Shown: piece after piece, positions 20,712-53,344 of the stretch
Layout of the letters: each line of letters opens with the position of its first letter
Numbering within the stretch: position 1 is the stretch's first letter
Assembly (NCBI GenBank): GCA_049523555.1
Contig: JBEKMU010000002.1
Coordinates: 1 to 63,174 of the forward strand
Direction: 5' to 3'
DNA from: Verrucomicrobiota bacterium
GTDB taxonomy: Bacteria > Verrucomicrobiota > Verrucomicrobiia > Limisphaerales > UBA11358
Length of the DNA: 63,174 bases
Made by a program: the position numbers and the translations under genes
Notes under the pieces: generated by a model
Database searches by the model: none
Told to the model about the DNA's origin: nothing
What the model saw: the letters and a program-made list of their open reading frames with translations, nothing else

Positions 20712-20738
20712 CACTTTGTTCATTTTTTGAACAAAGTG
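20712..20738. promoter_or_regulatory. 27-bp palindromic operator candidate (copy 1) in the T4SS / AAA-ATPase divergent promoter
   Basis: CACTTTGTTCA-ttttt-TGAACAAAGTG. The same arms and flanks recur at 50479-50505. Confidence 0.6.
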
Positions 20739-24339: not shown

Positions 24340-24478
24340 GCGATGAAAACCTAAAGGCAGGGCTTTGGCGTTGGCGGAAAGGTCAAGGAGGAACGGAAGC
24401 GGCGAGTCCTGTTTGAGCCGACCCGTAGTATCCTTGACGTTTCCGCCAACGACATATAATCGCCCGCCTTTTCATCGC
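24340..24478 (-). other. Extended imperfect hairpin (~140 nt) in the DUF932 leader region
   Basis: Outer arms gcgatgaaaa/ttttcatcgc. Inner 20-bp arms gttggcggaaaggtcaagga/tccttgacgtttccgccaac (1 mismatch) with a 41-nt loop. Confidence 0.5.
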
Positions 24479-46783: not shown

Positions 46784-48238
46784 CTAAAACCGCTTCCACC
46801 ACGAAAACCATTTTGAGATTTTTTCGTCTGGTTCAAGTGGTGGCAGCGTTATCCGTCGAAATCCTTTTTCGCAATGCACCAGCACACATTCATGGTCGCG
46901 GAGCGCGCGGAGTTGATACGGCTTGATTTTGTGCTCCTCGGTTTCGGAATAATTCACATTGCGCTTTCCGGCACTCGAACCCCATGAGCGTTTGAACACA
47001 CGTTTTTTGCCGAGAAAATCGGCAGCTTGAACCGCGTCGGCTTCATCGGCGGAACGGAAAATCATCCGGTTGCGAAGATTCAACGTCAGCACTTTGGATT
47101 TGTCGTTTCCCAAAGGCGGGATGAGCGATGTGGTGGACTGCGCGGCGGCGACGATGGTGGCGCCCGCCTCGCGGATCACGTCCACGCAATTGTAATCGCT
47201 CGTGCCGTCCTCGCTGGCCGTCATAAACCGCTGTGCCTCGTCCGCCCACAGGATGAGCAGATTGTTTTTGCCACGCTGATTTTTGGCCTGGTCAAACCGG
47301 CGCAGCGCATGATGGTAAAAAAGCAGTTTCAAAAAGGTGTTCACATACCGCCGCTCGGTCTGGAATTTCTGCGGCATGGTGACGAGGATGATTTTGCCGG
47401 TGTCAATTGCCGAAAAATCGAAGGTGCTGTTTTCGACGCAAAAGATTTCCGCCACTTCGGGCGTCAGGAAGTATTGCAGATAATTCCCGATGGTTTCCCG
47501 GACGCCGCCAAGCTGTTCCGCCGGCTGGTCGAGGAAACGGTGTTTGAAATGGAAATTCAGGGCGTAACGGCGTGGCGTCTGCAAGGGAAGTTTGTTCAAA
47601 AATTCCAATTCCTCGTCCAACTTCGGTTTGCTGGAAAGCAAATCCAGCGCGCCGGATAACGTCACGGGCCGTTGCAATTCGGCGAGCAATTCCAAAGCAT
47701 AAGCGATGTGCGTTTGCGCCTGATTTTTGAAAAAACCTTTGTCCCCGCCCTGGCCAAGACTGGTGGCCGTGTCCACCACAAATTTCGCATACGTCGTGAA
47801 TGGGATGCTGCGGTCGCCGGTGAGATTGAACCGATGCAATGATTGTTCGTTTTGGCCGTCGGCCTGAATTTGCAAATGAATTAAATCGGTTTCGCGTTGA
47901 TAGTGCCGCGCCATCGCCGAAAGCGTTTCCCAATAGACGCCTTTTTCATCAATGCACAGGCCGCCCCATTTGTCCTCGTTTTGAAACACCTGGTGCGCCA
48001 GTTGGTTGATGCCGGAAGTGGTCTTGCCGGAGCCGGTATCGCCGGTGATGAGCCAGCCGCGGCAGAATTGATTTCGTCTCCAAGTCAGGCCGCCAAGTTG
48101 GGCGACATGGCGTTTGCCTAGCAAAACCCTCGCGGTGATGATGAGCAACAAAAGGGCATATCCAAGCGCGAAGCCGCGCAGTGATTTGGACAAGGCTGGA
48201 AGATGAACCGGGTGGAACGGGATGAAATCAAGTTTCAT
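46784..48238 (-). CDS. virD4: Type IV coupling protein (VirD4/TraD/TraG family)
   Basis: N-terminal TM helix, Walker A 'ITGDTGSGKTTSG' and Walker B-like 'LLILWADEAQRF'. Confidence 0.8.
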   Translation of the reverse strand: MKLDFIPFHPVHLPALSKSLRGFALGYALLLLIITARVLLGKRHVAQLGGLTWRRNQFCRGWLITGDTGSGKTTSGINQLAHQVFQNEDKWGGLCIDEKGVYWETLSAMARHYQRETDLIHLQIQADGQNEQSLHRFNLTGDRSIPFTTYAKFVVDTATSLGQGGDKGFFKNQAQTHIAYALELLAELQRPVTLSGALDLLSSKPKLDEELEFLNKLPLQTPRRYALNFHFKHRFLDQPAEQLGGVRETIGNYLQYFLTPEVAEIFCVENSTFDFSAIDTGKIILVTMPQKFQTERRYVNTFLKLLFYHHALRRFDQAKNQRGKNNLLILWADEAQRFMTASEDGTSDYNCVDVIREAGATIVAAAQSTTSLIPPLGNDKSKVLTLNLRNRMIFRSADEADAVQAADFLGKKRVFKRSWGSSAGKRNVNYSETEEHKIKPYQLRALRDHECVLVHCEKGFRRITLPPLEPDEKISKWFSWWKRF

Positions 48239-48570: not shown

Positions 48571-49268
48571 GATTTTCCCGGCAGCAACAAGTCGGTGACG
48601 GATTCGATTTGGGCGTAAAATTTGCGCTGCCACGTTTGCAGCCGCTGACGGTCCAGCAAGTGCATGTGGCCGTCGGCCACGGCGGGCGTGATGGTGAGAT
48701 TGTTGTGACTCAATTCCTCCACAAGCCAGGGTTGCAATTTGGACATGGTGATTTCCTTTGCGCCAAGCTCCCTTAACAACCGCTTGCGGATGACCGTGTT
48801 TTCAAAAAAAGGGAAAGTATCGCTGTGAACGGTGTTCCGCAGCACGACGTAGGAACACACGTTTTTGAGTTTGTCGGTGACGCGGTTAAGCTGGTCAATG
48901 CTGTCCGCCTCCTGGTTGATGGGCATGATGAGTGTCAGCGCGGTGGACAAGTTTTTAAGTGTCAGCGGCAAATCAATATCGTCGAAATAATTGAAAAAGA
49001 CCTCGGTGGACGCGGCGCGGCAGTCAACGACTACGAGATCAGTCTTGTCCAGCGCGCGAATCATGGCGTCCAGTCCGCGCGGATGGGACAAATCCAAAAA
49101 TTGCACGTCGTCGCCATGAAAGCGTTTCAACGTGGAGTTTTCGTTGTCGCAGTCGCAGGCGGCGAACTGGATATTTTTGTCTTTGAGGTATTGGACGAAG
49201 TTGACGGCAAAGAAACTTTTGCCGACACCGCCCTTGCCATTAAAAATTAAATCAAGGCGTTTGGTCAT
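48567..49268 (-). CDS. ParA/MinD-family P-loop ATPase
   Basis: Deviant Walker A 'NGKGGVGKSFFAVN' at the N-terminus. Confidence 0.8.
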   Translation of the reverse strand: MTKRLDLIFNGKGGVGKSFFAVNFVQYLKDKNIQFAACDCDNENSTLKRFHGDDVQFLDLSHPRGLDAMIRALDKTDLVVVDCRAASTEVFFNYFDDIDLPLTLKNLSTALTLIMPINQEADSIDQLNRVTDKLKNVCSYVVLRNTVHSDTFPFFENTVIRKRLLRELGAKEITMSKLQPWLVEELSHNNLTITPAVADGHMHLLDRQRLQTWQRKFYAQIESVTDLLLPGKS

Positions 49269-49720
49269 ATTGTTTCTCCGGGTGGTAGTTGCTCAACTTT
49301 GGCAATTCGAGGCCCGCGCGACGCGAACGCAGAGGTTTCCGTCGGCACAGGCGCGGGTTTTGGGGTCATGGCCGGCGCGGGCGGCGGCGTGAGTTTGGCC
49401 GGAGCAACCGGCGCGGTTTTTTGCGAGTTGGCACGGTTAGCACGATTCGCTGGACGGCGGTTAGCGGATGATTTGCGCGGACGTTTTTCATTCAAAAAGC
49501 GGTGGCAGAATTTCATGACGGAAACATCGGATGTGGGAATGCCATTTTGGGTTAGCAAATCGCTAATGGAGCGGTAGGAAACGCCCTGCTTGCGGAGCGC
49601 GGCAATGTCTTCCTTGAGGGTTAGCAACCGCGAAGCACGCAAGTTGGCGTTTTGGGTTAGCAATGCCGCAGCATGGCGAAAGCGATCCAGTGCATCAGGC
49701 GGAATAGCATCGAGGTTCAT
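49265..49720 (-). CDS. HTH-containing protein with Pro/Ala-rich tail (candidate iteron/centromere or oriT-binding protein)
   Basis: 'LRKQGVSYRSISDLLTQNGIPTSDVSVMKF' resembles a resolvase-type HTH. First gene of the operon, directly downstream of the iteron array. Confidence 0.5.
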   Translation of the reverse strand: MNLDAIPPDALDRFRHAAALLTQNANLRASRLLTLKEDIAALRKQGVSYRSISDLLTQNGIPTSDVSVMKFCHRFLNEKRPRKSSANRRPANRANRANSQKTAPVAPAKLTPPPAPAMTPKPAPVPTETSAFASRGPRIAKVEQLPPGETI

Positions 49721-49725
49721 AACGC

Positions 49726-49832
49726 GATTAGCATGGGCATAGCAAATTGGTTAGTGGCCGGCGCAAGCATTGAGTTAGCACTCTGGTTAGCATTGCGGTT
49801 AGCAATTGAGTTAACATCGCGGTTAGCTGGCA
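49726..49832. repeat. Iteron array: 9 units in strict 12-bp register, consensus nnnnGGTTAGCA
   Basis: Octamer starts at 49726, 49737 (degenerate), 49749, 49762 (degenerate), 49773, 49785, 49797, 49809 and 49821. Additional GGTTAGC copies at 49435, 49459, 49549, 49619, 49655 and 49880. Confidence 0.75.
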
Positions 49833-49941
49833 ATGTTCGCGGGCCGATTTGCACGCGAATGGCAAATGCACCCCGGCGCGGTTAGCGCAGAATCCTTCGG
49901 TAACGAAGGGGTAAAGCTTACGTGCGAAAAAAGGTTCATTC

Positions 49942-50451
49942 TCATACTGATTGAGCCACTTGCTGCTTCCGCTGTTGGAGCAATTCTTCACGCCAGTTTT
50001 GCAACTGCATGGAGACCTTTTCGATGTGGCTGGTTTGTTCGATGGTTCGGGCTTCGATGTGCCCGGCATATTGGTCGCCCAATTCCGTATCCGGCAATTG
50101 CATGACGGAGTGGGCGGCGTGGTCGTTGATGCGCTGGTCGAGCATCTTCAAGACTTCGATGGCGGTGCGTAATTCGGCGGTGGTGGGTTGCATGGTGATA
50201 CGGGGCTGTTCCAGGGGCCGTGTTGCTGACTCCCGGATTGATTTGGTTTGTTCGGCGGTGAGTGGATGCGCCCAGGTATCATCGAGGCCAAGCCGGGTGG
50301 CAGCTTCCTCGGCGGCGATTTTCGTTGGCGCTGCGACAACCGCGCGCAACGGATCGCCCATGACGCGGGCGTATTCCCGGTCGGTGAAGTAAATCCCCCA
50401 TAGTTGTTCGCCCGGCTTGGGCGTCGGAGGCATGGACTGGTTTATTTTCAT
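49942..50451 (-). CDS. hypothetical protein divergent from the relaxase
   Basis: The ORF is open to 50559. The internal Met 'MKINQSMPP' is preferred because the upstream part spans the palindromic operator. Confidence 0.45.
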   Translation of the reverse strand: MKINQSMPPTPKPGEQLWGIYFTDREYARVMGDPLRAVVAAPTKIAAEEAATRLGLDDTWAHPLTAEQTKSIRESATRPLEQPRITMQPTTAELRTAIEVLKMLDQRINDHAAHSVMQLPDTELGDQYAGHIEARTIEQTSHIEKVSMQLQNWREELLQQRKQQVAQSV

Positions 50452-50478
50452 ACCACCAGTAAACCAGCTTTTTTGAAT

Positions 50479-50505
50479 CACTTTGTTCATTTTATGAACA
50501 AAGTG
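50479..50505. promoter_or_regulatory. 27-bp palindromic operator candidate (copy 2), 29 bp upstream of the relaxase start
   Basis: CACTTTGTTCAT-ttt-ATGAACAAAGTG. The extended ~40-bp block is shared with 20702-20744. Confidence 0.6.
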
Positions 50506-50533
50506 AAAACGGGGCTTTGGCATACTTTCCTTC

Positions 50534-53344
50534 GTGGTTACGGCCAAAACGCAATACAAATTGACGAACGCAAAGGAATACTTTGAGGAGCATCTTTGCG
50601 TGGGGGATTACTATGATGAAGGGCAGCGGGTGACAGGCCAGTGGTTCGGCCTGGGTGCGGAACGGCTCGGTTTGTCCGGCAAAGTCGGCGCGGAAGCATT
50701 TCTGCGTCTCTGCGAGAACCTGCATCCGGCTTCGGGCGACACATTGACGCCACGCCTGAATACCATGCGGATGGATAAGGCCGGGGGCAACGCCACCAAT
50801 CGCCGGATTTTTTACGATTTCACGTTCTCGCCGCCCAAATCGGTTTCGGTCGCCGCATTGGTCGGCGCGGATAACCGGATTTTGGAAGCCCATGCCCAGG
50901 CCGTCCGGTCGGCGATGAAGGAATTTGAAGCCTTCGCCACAACGCGCGTGCGGGTTGGCAAGGCGGACTGTGACCGCTCCACCGGCAATTTTGTCGCCGC
51001 CGCGTTCACGCATGACACCTCCCGCGCCCTGGACCCGCACCTGCACACGCATTGCATCGTCTTCAATGCAACTTTTGATGCCGTGGAAAACCGCTGGAAG
51101 GCGCTGCAAAATTATGAACTGCTGCGGGCGCGGAAATTTGCCGAGAACGTCTATTACCATGAACTCGCCCGCAAGCTGCGCGGGTTTGGTTATGAGATTC
51201 GCAACCTGGCGCGCGGCGATTTTCAAATCGAAGGCATTTCGGAAGCGGTCTGCGAACGCTTTTCCAAACGGGATGCGGAAATTGACAGGGCATTGGCGAA
51301 ACTGCTGGCCGATAAGCCGGAATTGACGGGCGCAAACTTCAAGGCGTTGCGCGCTCAACTGGCGGTCGAGACGCGCGCTAAAAAACAAAATGATTTGAGT
51401 CGGGCGGAATTGCGGATGCTATGGGACTCACAATTGAATGAGACCGAACGCGCCGCCTTGCGCCAGCCTCCGAAACATTCGGAAAAAATCACTGGCAACC
51501 GGATGAGCGTGGGTGAAGCCGTTCAGTGGGCGGAGGATCATCTGTTTGACCGCAACTCGGTCGCGCTGGAATGCCAATTATGGCAACAGGCATTGGACCG
51601 GGGGCGCGGTGAAAATTTCTCCGTGGATGAACTCAAGGAAGTTACCCGCCAGCGTCCGTATATTCGCAATTCAGAACGTCCCGCTGAAGTGACGTTGCGG
51701 GAAGTGCTGTTGCGGGAAATGGAAATTGTTCAAACCGTCAAGGATGGCGCGGGCAATTGCCGGCCATTGGTGGAACATTCCTACACGGCCAATCCAAAGC
51801 TGGATGCGGAGCAACGCCTGGCTCTGGATGCGCTGCTGCGTTCCACCAACGCCGTTTCCCTTTTCCGTGGCGGCGCGGGCACGGGTAAAAGTTTCGTCCT
51901 GCGCGAGCTGGTCGAGCAAGTCCGGCATTCGGGCAGGCGCGTGGTCGTCCTCGCGCCGCAACGTCAGCAAGTGGTGGCGATGGAACAGGCGGAATTTCCA
52001 TCGCCGACGACGGTGACAAGTTTTTTGCTCAAACATGAACTGGTTGAGGGTGCGGTGGTCGTGGTGGACGAGGCCGGGCAGATTGGCGGTCGTCAAATGT
52101 CTGAATTGCTCCGGCTGGCGCATGAGCGAAATGCGCGGGTGATCCTGTCAGGCGACACGCGCCAGCATGGAGCGGTTGAAGCGTCGGATGCGTTGCTGGC
52201 CATTGAACGGTATTCCGGCGTCAAGCCGGTCGAACTCCACACGATTCGCCGCCAAGACCCGGCGCTTGGCCGCAGTAAGAAAGAAAGTTCCAAGATCAAG
52301 CAGTATCGCAAGGCAGTCGAAGTGGCGGCGGCAGGCAAACTGGCCGAATCGTTTGAACGGCTGGACAAAATGGGTGCGGTGGTTTCCTGCGGGTTGGGCG
52401 AGCAAGCCGACAAGCTGGCCGATGAATATGTCCGGCTGGCGGAAGAAAAGGCTTCCGCCGTCGTGGTATCGCAGACCTGGGCGGAAGTGCATCGCGTCAA
52501 TTCAAAGGTGCGTGATGGACTTAAAGGGAAGGGATTGCTCGGTGCAAATGATGTCACTGTTGAAGCATTGGACAAGCTGGATTTAACGAACGCGCAGAAG
52601 CGTGACCAGCGATTTTATCCGAAGGATGCGGTGGTTGTGTTCAACCAGAAGGTGCGGCAGGCTGAACAGGGAAAGCGTGGGAAACTGGCGGGCATCGTCA
52701 AGGCCGGGATTCTTATCAAGATTGGTGGTAAAACTGTCATTATCTCAAACAAGGTGCTTGATAAAATCACCGTTTGCCTGCCGCGCGAAATTCCCGTCGC
52801 GCAAGGCGACAAATTGCATCTCAAGGCCAATCGCAAGCTGGCCTCCGGCGCTCGCGTCACCAACGGCGAATTGGTCGTCGTCAAATCAGTTCACGCCAAC
52901 GGGAAAATTGAGCTAACCGACGGCCGGGTTCTGGACAAAAGTTTTCGTGAATTTCTGCCCGGCTACGCCGTCACGTCCTACGGCTCACAGGGCAAGACGG
53001 TGGATTATGTTCTTTTTTCCGATTCCACCATCAAGGCGGCTACCAACGCGCAACAATGGTATGTCACCATTTCGCGCGGGCGGCGCGGCGTCCGCATTTT
53101 CACGCCGGACAAGGAGCAATTGCGCGAGAATTTGGCGCGTTCCGGCCACAGGCCGCTGGCGTTGGAATTTGCCGGTGGCCTGCGCCCGCTCAATCACAAT
53201 CCGCTTTGGGACCGGCTGCATGGCTGTCTCCTGCGGTTTGGCCGACATGCCGCCAATACGTTTTGCCGATTGAAACAATCCCGTCATCATTCTCAACCAG
53301 AACAAAAACATGAACACCAAATCTCCCGAATGTTACATCACTGA
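50534..53344 (+). CDS. MOBF-family relaxase-helicase (TrwC/TraI type)
   Basis: N-terminal 'AKEYFEEHLCVGDYYDEG', His-triad 'HDTSRALDPHLHTHCIVFN' and RecD-like helicase 'FRGGAGTGKSF' and 'VVVDEAGQ'. Confidence 0.9.
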   Translation: MVTAKTQYKLTNAKEYFEEHLCVGDYYDEGQRVTGQWFGLGAERLGLSGKVGAEAFLRLCENLHPASGDTLTPRLNTMRMDKAGGNATNRRIFYDFTFSPPKSVSVAALVGADNRILEAHAQAVRSAMKEFEAFATTRVRVGKADCDRSTGNFVAAAFTHDTSRALDPHLHTHCIVFNATFDAVENRWKALQNYELLRARKFAENVYYHELARKLRGFGYEIRNLARGDFQIEGISEAVCERFSKRDAEIDRALAKLLADKPELTGANFKALRAQLAVETRAKKQNDLSRAELRMLWDSQLNETERAALRQPPKHSEKITGNRMSVGEAVQWAEDHLFDRNSVALECQLWQQALDRGRGENFSVDELKEVTRQRPYIRNSERPAEVTLREVLLREMEIVQTVKDGAGNCRPLVEHSYTANPKLDAEQRLALDALLRSTNAVSLFRGGAGTGKSFVLRELVEQVRHSGRRVVVLAPQRQQVVAMEQAEFPSPTTVTSFLLKHELVEGAVVVVDEAGQIGGRQMSELLRLAHERNARVILSGDTRQHGAVEASDALLAIERYSGVKPVELHTIRRQDPALGRSKKESSKIKQYRKAVEVAAAGKLAESFERLDKMGAVVSCGLGEQADKLADEYVRLAEEKASAVVVSQTWAEVHRVNSKVRDGLKGKGLLGANDVTVEALDKLDLTNAQKRDQRFYPKDAVVVFNQKVRQAEQGKRGKLAGIVKAGILIKIGGKTVIISNKVLDKITVCLPREIPVAQGDKLHLKANRKLASGARVTNGELVVVKSVHANGKIELTDGRVLDKSFREFLPGYAVTSYGSQGKTVDYVLFSDSTIKAATNAQQWYVTISRGRRGVRIFTPDKEQLRENLARSGHRPLALEFAGGLRPLNHNPLWDRLHGCLLRFGRHAANTFCRLKQSRHHSQPEQKHEHQISRMLHH

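Follow-up and report, generated by a model that had tools for sequence, protein, structure and literature searches.

The stretch of DNA analysed here (hereafter the window; 63,174 nucleotides of contig JBEKMU010000002.1 from a Verrucomicrobiota bacterium) carries an integrative and conjugative element (ICE), a setting indicated by a tyrosine integrase adjoining tRNA-Met and a divergent type IV secretion system, both also present in the window. Our subject is an array of short, phased direct repeats in this element, together with the gene that it borders, which encodes a 151-amino-acid (aa) putative DNA-binding protein with a helix-turn-helix (HTH) domain. This gene is the first of four minus-strand genes that are coupled by ATGA overlaps and encode the HTH protein, a 233-aa ATPase, a small protein and a coupling protein. 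A relaxase gene lies divergent from this operon, 0.8 kb away, as it does in all related loci that reach that far. The features of the locus are collected in Table 1.

Table 1. Features of the repeat array, its operon and the adjoining region, in window coordinates.
Feature	Position	Strand	Description
Upstream phased array	49726..49832	-	Nine ~12-bp units, TGCTAACC on the gene-sense (minus) strand; strong part 49773-49828
Five strong units	49773, 49785, 49797, 49809, 49821		AGTTAGCA at 49773, GGTTAGCA at 49785 and 49797, AGTTAACA at 49809, GGTTAGCT at 49821; exact 12-bp steps
Four degenerate units	49726, 49737, 49749, 49762		11-13-bp steps
First word copy	49880..49887	-	GGTTAGCG on the plus strand; 6 nt from the perfect hairpin
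Three intragenic copies in HTH-domain coding sequence	49549..49663	-	At 49550, 49619 and 49655; coding-strand TTGCTAACCC; TTG CTA ACC, Leu-Leu-Thr
Two intragenic copies in linker coding sequence	49435..49466	-	At 49435 and 49459 (GGTTAGCG), 24 bp apart; in-frame Ala-Asn (GCT AAC)
151-aa putative DNA-binding protein	49265..49720	-	N-terminal tri-helical HTH (~residues 30-78), basic Pro/Ala-rich disordered linker, C-terminal tail
Hairpin	49894..49909		Perfect; 6-bp stem, 4-nt loop; CCTTCG-TTAC-CGAAGG on the minus strand
TraL/StbB-type Walker ATPase, 233 aa	48567..49268	-	KGGVGKS; ATGA overlap with the HTH gene
Small protein with C-terminal membrane helix	48235..48570	-	Probable start ATG 48570 (111 aa); ATGA overlaps on both sides; StbC/TraM position
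Type IV coupling protein (TrwB/TraD-like)	46784..48238	-	Last gene of the coupled operon
Upstream gene between relaxase and hairpin	49942..50451	-	Probable start ATG 50451 (169 aa)
MobF (TrwC-type) relaxase-helicase	50534..53344	+	TrwC Pfam E 8.8e-83
Perfect palindrome	50478..50506		13-nt arms; in the 82-bp divergent intergenic region between upstream gene and relaxase

The repeat word is strongly concentrated at the head of the HTH gene. Six copies of GGTTAGCA occur in the window, all on the plus strand between 49435 and 49804, where about 0.9 would be expected and none of 100 shuffles reaches six. The shorter core GTTAGC, with 15 copies, is at chance level overall, and 10 of these 15 fall within 49436-49886, every one on the plus strand. 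When core pairs at a distance of 12 bp were sought with at most two mismatches, four consecutive overlapping matches were found at 49774-49827, with no comparable run elsewhere in the window, and Tandem Repeats Finder (TRF) reports a period of 12/24 at 49766-49827. An Rfam scan of 49200-50700 gave no match. Direct reading of the same segment, with units counted by eye, confirmed what a first-pass annotation of this DNA had described: nine units upstream of the gene, with the array edge 6 bp from the start codon (ATG 49720), five copies inside the gene, three of them as TTGCTAACCC, and a further copy beside the perfect hairpin ccttcg-gtaa-cgaagg. The description of the array as strictly 12-bp-phased fits the five strong units and is only approximate for the four degenerate ones.

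Comparison with homologous ICEs, a check that the first-pass annotation had itself named, shows that the position and phase of the array are kept while its sequence is not. When one genome per species was scanned, 30 loci were found, almost all of them from metagenome-assembled genomes (MAGs) of peat and soil labelled Verrucomicrobiota or Limisphaerales. We examined 28 loci, namely the window, 26 of the scan loci and another copy from the genome of the window itself. Wherever the contig reaches, gene order is relaxase, upstream gene, HTH gene, ATPase, small protein and coupling protein. All 28 share one layout: a hairpin (stem of 6 bp, loop of 4 nt), then 7 nt, then a direct-repeat array of approximately 12-bp phase that runs into the HTH gene. 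The word itself is clade-specific. It is GCTAAC in the window and in L001-L003 (handles denote individual loci), GCTTCG in L004-6, 8, 11, 12, 16 and 28, GTTGC(G) in L007, 9, 10, 20, 21 and 24, where up to 15 upstream units occur, GCTGCG in L017 and L022, CTGCGC in L026 and L027, a degenerate TGCC-type word in L013-15, 18, 19 and 25, and a CCGCG-type word in the second copy, the one from the genome of the window. A TGC core is common to all words. One of these loci, L027, comes from a record titled 'uncultured Bifidobacterium sp.' (CAZBIC010000002.1); it is near-identical to L026 of a Verrucomicrobia MAG, and the record is probably mis-binned or mislabelled.

Spacings between repeats are mostly 12, 24 or 36 bp, and now and then 11 bp. 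Taken over all sites of a locus, upstream and intragenic, a span of ~450 bp, the best-fitting period lies between 11.6 and 12.3 bp in six clades. Its coherence is 0.81-0.96, with p between 0.0003 and 0.024 against random placement; periods of 8-16 bp were scanned and p was taken after scanning. The earlier equation of 12 bp with about one helical turn does not hold, since a turn of B-DNA is 10.5 bp.

The word varies together with the protein encoded beside it. The array and the HTH gene up to its conserved tail form an island of 38-76% nucleotide identity between flanks that are 80-95% identical. Among the encoded proteins, identity between clades is 60-66% for the HTH protein and 85-94% for the ATPase, coupling protein and relaxase. 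For example, the ATPase of L009 is 94% identical to that of the window, as close as that of L001, and yet L009 has a different word and a different HTH protein. Within the HTH protein, the recognition helix is SDVSVMKF with the word GCTAAC, SDTCVTNF with GCTTCG, SPSGLMRF with GTTGCG, SDTCVMRF with GCTGCG or CTGCGC, and SDTCVINF with the TGCC-type word. Word-linked variation of this kind is seen in no other neighbouring protein. A different word in each clade implies that some protein must read each of them, and the HTH protein is the only variable DNA-binding protein nearby. Judged by these sequences, the array and the 151-aa HTH protein are most likely a cognate pair.

The word has also left an imprint on the codons of the HTH gene. 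Leu-Leu-Thr at residues 55-57 and 32-34 is written TTG CTA ACC (or ACT) in all four loci of the GCTAAC clade and in none of the 22 others, and Ala-Leu-Arg at residues 41-43 is written GCG CTT CGC in every locus of the GCTTCG clade and elsewhere in L027 only. CTA is the rarest leucine codon, at 2.9% in the large genes of the window, and the chance of finding TTG CTA ACY at all three Leu-Leu-Thr motifs is ~1e-7. In the linker, the word recurs in frame every 24 bp, giving Ala-Asn (GCT AAC), Ala-Ser (GCT TCG) or Ala-Ala (GCT GCG) according to clade, which indicates that here the DNA word shapes the peptide. The intragenic copies thus occupy two reading frames, TTG|CTA|ACC and GCT|AAC. Two reading frames, and synonymous codons that follow the word, show that these copies have been selected as DNA.

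The reverse could be imagined, with the repeats arising by chance or as a by-product of coding, given that half of the copies are coding and specify repeated peptides (LLT, AN). A by-product of coding would hardly use two reading frames and the rarest leucine codon or continue into non-coding DNA, and in other clades the protein motif is retained although another word occupies these positions. The clustering of the words, the synonymous codons that follow them and the statistics of the rare CTA codon refute this explanation, to which we give virtually no credence. In terms of sequence conservation, the array is real, conserved and selected as DNA.

The presumed reader of the array belongs to a family without a name. 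We found 192 relatives of the 151-aa protein in metagenomes, none of them named, and Pfam offers no family for it; Pfam and NCBIfam gave weak generic HTH matches at most (HTH_38, DUF6471). Neither ParB nor ribbon-helix-helix families were found in the Pfam and NCBIfam profile searches, and a weak match to the N-terminal HTH of IS6 transposases was obtained for 75 of 78 family members. In alignments, residues 1-80 form a conserved N-terminal domain, which is followed by a variable linker, basic and rich in Pro/Ala, and by a strongly conserved C-terminal tail. The AlphaFold model places helices at 36-44, 49-58 and 65-75 with a predicted local distance difference test (pLDDT) score of 80-90, and the linker falls below 50. 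A PDB sequence search with the protein returned nothing relevant, and tblastn of its HTH domain against 72,556 plasmids gave no significant match.

The tail, encoded at 49265-49330, is a separate point of conservation: its last ~25 residues (ETSAF-SRGPRIAKVEQLPPGETI) are near-invariant across clades despite the hypervariable linker ahead of them. In the plasmid proteins TraK and StbA, too, a disordered linker leads to a short conserved motif at the C-terminus, and the tail is a candidate peptide for contact with a partner. The HTH domain, for its part, has a wider distribution, as its profile matches 520 cluster representatives. Many of these (P0162, P0167, P0177, P0242 and others) are long Lys/Glu-rich proteins with 3-9 tandem HTH modules of ~62 aa, which share the pattern LREQGLSY..I..Y....GI.VS..TI...CK.IY and have generic matches to HTH_38, HTH_7, DUF7626 and DUF6471. 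One would expect poly-HTH proteins of this kind to recognise direct repeats in tandem.

The second gene of the operon encodes an ATPase of a kind found in conjugative plasmids. The Walker A motif of the ATPase is deviant (KGGVGKS), and among the full-length family matches of the protein the best is TraL from IncP plasmids (NCBIfam PRK13886, E 5.4e-16, residues 4-225 on profile positions 3-239 of 241). The score lies under the curated cut-off, so the ATPase is a distant relative of TraL. The ParA partition model (NF041546 ParA_partition) reaches 25.9 bits, where the cut-off is 180, and aligns with residues 8-89 only, the P-loop region. With tblastn, full-length relatives were found in 937 plasmids, 793 of them conjugative, where they are annotated as TraL, MobD or ArsA-related ATPase. 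On the strength of these profile matches, the protein that the first-pass annotation called ParA is a TraL/StbB-type ATPase and not a member of the ParA partition family.

These results bear on whether the locus might be a classical type I partition system, in which a ParA motor and an HTH centromere binder would act on the array as the centromere of the excised, replicating ICE, with no direct link to transfer. The deviant Walker A motif KGGVGKS would suit such a system, the diversification of specificity resembles incompatibility avoidance, and type Ib systems typically have direct-repeat centromeres that also act as operators (10.1101/2022.04.29.490116). We nevertheless regard it as improbable: the ParA model matches at the P-loop only (26 bits against 180) where the TraL match is full-length, the binder is encoded ahead of the ATPase, translational coupling joins the operon to the coupling protein, and 793 of the 937 plasmid homologues reside in conjugative plasmids and are annotated TraL or MobD. 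It is much less probable still that an initiator binds the repeats as the iterons of a replication origin, although phased direct repeats are typical of iteron origins too. None of the seven neighbouring proteins matched a Rep family in profile searches, with a GC content of 0.53 the region cannot be called AT-rich, and the sole protein that co-varies with the repeats is the 151-aa HTH protein with its disordered tail. What is present instead is a relaxase that could drive rolling-circle replication.

The hairpin ahead of the array is conserved as a structure. In relatives it lies upstream of the HTH gene with the consensus CCCCTT-xx-NNNN-xx-AAGG. None of the 28 loci departs from the 6-bp stem and 4-nt loop; the outer CCTT/AAGG never varies, and the inner two stem pairs occur in four Watson-Crick combinations (CG/CG, CG/GC, GC/CG and GC/TA) with zero mismatches. 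In every clade the clade-specific word starts 7 nt past the stem. The motif is single in the window and, together with its 5' flank, occurs twice in the 3.1-Mb genome. Each flank of the hairpin is conserved, as WTTYTGCG on the minus strand and, at least as well, as GGT-NNN-GC-N-T on the plus strand. The locus thus combines a TrwC-family relaxase, a conserved hairpin and a conserved single-strand segment, as does a MOBF-type origin of transfer (oriT) such as that of R388. By analogy with the polarity of R388 and RP4-type plasmids, we infer that the hairpin is the best oriT candidate, a putative relaxase-recognition inverted repeat with a nick on the minus strand near 49886.

Better-known modules provide the frame in which the array can be read. 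In plasmid R388, stbA-stbB-stbC lies beside oriT, and equivalents exist in IncN, IncP-1 (traK-traL-traM), IncP-9, IncQ-like and IncI2 plasmids (PMC3098194). In R388, StbA recognises 9-bp direct repeats that are arranged as two groups of five with a period of 11 bp; it is needed for stability and restrains conjugation, while StbB is a Walker ATPase needed for conjugation (PMC3098194). StbA is also a repressor, and it combines a conserved N-terminal tri-helical HTH (alpha2 41-49, alpha3 57-69) with a disordered C-terminal half (10.1101/2022.04.29.490116). In plasmid R1, partition proteins are functionally linked with coupling proteins (PMC4949242).

We consider it likely, as far as comparative sequence data can tell, that the array is the docking lattice of the 151-aa HTH protein within an oriT-adjacent module of the StbABC/TraKLM class, carried by a tRNA-Met-integrated ICE. 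The comparative data support the array, its co-variation with the protein, the codon imprint, the family of the ATPase, synteny and hairpin covariation. From these we infer a course of events that would begin with binding. In this first step, the one on which the comparative data bear, monomers or dimers of the HTH protein would load head to tail on the direct repeats spaced by ~12 bp, starting 7 nt from the hairpin, and loading would pass through the promoter region and ~340 bp into the HTH gene to yield a single long nucleoprotein filament. This filament would repress its own operon, coupling protein included, and would mark the excised ICE, by anchoring it, by positioning it or by presenting oriT. 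Contact with the conserved C-terminal tail is probably made by the ATPase, which would pass the complex to the coupling protein and secretion system in the manner of R388 StbB. The hairpin would be the relaxase recognition repeat, with the nick a few nucleotides from the first repeat, and the word and HTH domain would form an exchangeable specificity cassette that spares sibling ICEs in one cell from cross-talk. The first-pass annotation had proposed a centromere or partition site, or an array for a relaxosome accessory protein beside oriT. Conservation in 28 of 28 loci and co-variation of the word with recognition helix and codons lend support to the core of this proposal, and oriT stands as a candidate.

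A more modest function would be that of a pure autoregulatory operator array, which sets the level of the ATPase and coupling protein and has no role in oriT or positioning. An array that abuts the start codon and enters the gene is an ideal roadblock, no word copies occur elsewhere in the window, and StbA also represses (10.1101/2022.04.29.490116). Against this, 10-17 sites over ~450 bp far exceed the need of a repressor, the first word stands at a fixed 7 nt from a conserved, covarying hairpin, and the module includes a TraL/StbB-type ATPase partner and a conserved tail for a partner. Autoregulation alone therefore seems to us rather improbable as the whole function of the array.

Several observations weigh against the docking lattice in an StbABC/TraKLM-class module. 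Because of the physical linkage between the word and the HTH gene, their co-variation alone is no proof of binding. The 151-aa protein does not match DUF5338, the Pfam family of TraK. Profile-profile comparisons were made with TraK, StbA and a 30-sequence StbA alignment, and repeated after the query had been widened with remote relatives. The alignments (hhalign) to StbA/TraK reach E 0.02-0.05 and a probability of ~2%, with a constant register that sets the predicted helices on the end of alpha1, alpha2 and alpha3 of StbA. Foldseek searches of the PDB with AlphaFold models of the full-length protein and of the 85-aa domain gave no match with E <1 and did not return StbA (7PC1); Foldseek has little power on so small a helical domain, and relatedness stays compatible with this null result. 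By every route tried, the similarity of the HTH protein to StbA/TraK stayed below significance, and homology was not demonstrated. Extra word copies were not found at other promoters of the window, unlike the situation in R388, and the window's repeats are oriented opposite to those of R388 relative to the gene. Also unlike R388, an extra gene lies between array and relaxase. At the hairpin, the plus-strand flank is at least as conserved as the minus, and either strand might carry the nick. The hairpin could instead be a terminator of the upstream gene, as a T-run follows it in several relatives, but a scan for the intrinsic-terminator consensus does not call the window hairpin. Its fold as DNA is no better than that of shuffles (z -1.0).

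We speculate further, with somewhat less than even confidence, that a continuous lattice of ~500 bp and ~11.8-bp period, reaching from 7 nt beside the hairpin through the initial 340 bp of the binder gene, dictates both codons and linker residues (Ala-Asn, Ala-Ser or Ala-Ala, recurring every eight residues), and that lattice and HTH domain together form a swappable identity cassette among near-identical ICE backbones. If true, several sibling ICEs could share one cell without cross-regulation or cross-mobilisation. Several MAGs do contain two or three sibling ICEs, each with a word of its own (L001, L005 and L022 in one MAG; L002 with L010; L009 with L011; L012 with L023). As evidence on cross-talk, co-resident siblings with different words were set aside: they occur in six of seven multi-element genomes, yet ~79% of random pairs differ, so the pattern is consistent with the idea and nothing beyond that.

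The window's own genome contains two further phased arrays. Contig C47 (L033 1100-2360; L036) encodes a 165-aa HTH homologue, 37% identical, with its own hairpin and a 12-bp-phased CCGCG-type array, and without an ATPase, coupling protein or relaxase nearby. Opposite this homologue, and without its own binder gene, lies an orphan array: 11 units of 12-bp period that mix GGTTAGCA, GGTTGGCA, GAAGCAAC and GGTTAACA and are followed by a hairpin CCCCTTA-TTT-TAAGGGG. Beside it, 59 nt (C47 2523-2581) are 81% identical to 24382-24437 of the window, a leader upstream of the DUF932 operon of the ICE. The orphan array may represent a relic or a decoy, or it may serve as oriT for a mobilisable element that makes use of the protein of the window ICE.

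The region between the hairpin and the relaxase holds two further features. The upstream gene has no family match; its N-terminal half is missing or replaced in several relatives (L007, L009, L010 and others; -700 to -500 from the HTH start), and its conserved part comprises residues 121-206 only. The palindrome next to the relaxase has a second copy at 20713-20737, in the divergent promoter region of a pilin and an AAA+ gene. In relatives its symmetry is kept while its sequence changes (TTGTTCAT, TTGTTCCA, CTGTGCG, TTGTGTAAC and TTGTTTCA types), and these types reassort independently of the iteron clade. We considered it as the repeat of a nick site and rejected this as unlikely, given the second copy in another divergent promoter region and the independence from the iteron clade. 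It is probably the operator of another, master regulator with its own specificity series, outside the iteron system.

Modules of the Stb/TraKLM type decide whether conjugative elements stay or transfer, and have so far been studied in a few proteobacterial plasmids. The locus described here would extend the same logic to ICEs of a barely studied soil phylum, around a family of DNA binders for which Pfam has no model. Together with its relatives it supplies at least six natural pairs of word and recognition helix on near-identical backbones, a ready-made series for reading an HTH recognition code. It is also a clear case in which putative binding sites inside a gene constrain both its synonymous codons and the sequence of its linker. 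Further, the hairpin gives these elements a concrete oriT candidate.

The closest parallel in organisation is R388. In both, a DNA-binder gene, a Walker ATPase gene and a small-protein gene follow in this order, with a 4-nt overlap of the first two (141/231/128 aa in R388, 151/233/111 aa in the window), and the module adjoins a TrwC-type relaxase. Both binders combine an N-terminal tri-helical HTH with a disordered C-terminal half. Reading the R388 record on the stbA-sense strand, we found a 6-bp-stem, 4-nt-loop hairpin, 8 nt, and a nick 298 nt upstream of stbA, with the direct repeats (stbDRs) between (PMC4176350; PMC3098194), and the records of RP4-type plasmids have the same polarity. The R388 hairpin, IR2, thus resembles that of the window in stem, loop and the succession of hairpin, direct repeats near helical phase, and gene. 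The differences are also clear. The period is ~12 bp in the window and 11 bp in R388, word copies lie inside the binder gene of the window and none in stbA, and the coupling-protein gene belongs to the HTH operon in the window and to the relaxase operon in R388. StbB relatives fall into a KGGxxK[ST] group, with TraL and MobD, and an SGxxGK[ST] group, with R388 (PMC3098194); the window ATPase has the former motif. Finally, the window element is an ICE of Verrucomicrobiota, whereas R388 is an IncW MOBF11 plasmid.

Other plasmids share different parts of the arrangement. The traK-traL-traM genes of IncP-1 plasmids (RP4/RK2) have the gene order of the window, their ATPase is a detectable relative as TraL, and TraK is built like the window binder: its HTH domain is followed by a Pro/Ala-rich linker and then by a conserved short tail. 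Its DNA target lies between nic and traK (PMC3098194). TraK belongs to DUF5338, to which the window binder has no match, the IncP-1 relaxase is MOBP where that of the window is MOBF, and TRF did not find a simple phased repeat array ahead of traK of pKV29. In IncI2 plasmids (R721-type), ACCCACA direct repeats with a 12-bp period lie directly upstream of a StbA-like first gene, and TraL is 24.5% identical to the window ATPase over 97% of its length. These are MOBP plasmids of Enterobacteria, with every repeat copy upstream and none in the gene. In type Ib partition, as in TP228 ParF-ParG and pSM19035 delta-omega, short direct-repeat arrays serve as both centromere and operator, and the flexible tail of the binder stimulates a Walker ATPase. 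Unlike the window, such loci have a ribbon-helix-helix binder and place the ATPase gene first, unlinked to a coupling protein or relaxase. The first-pass annotation had held that an NTPase tied to the coupling protein through an iteron array was not a standard ICE feature. This was overstated, as the ATPase is of the TraL/StbB type and modules of the StbABC/TraKLM class are known from R388, RP4, IncN and IncI2. What sets the window apart from these reference systems is a coupling protein encoded in the same translationally coupled operon, repeat sites inside the binder gene, and a host element that is an ICE of Verrucomicrobiota.

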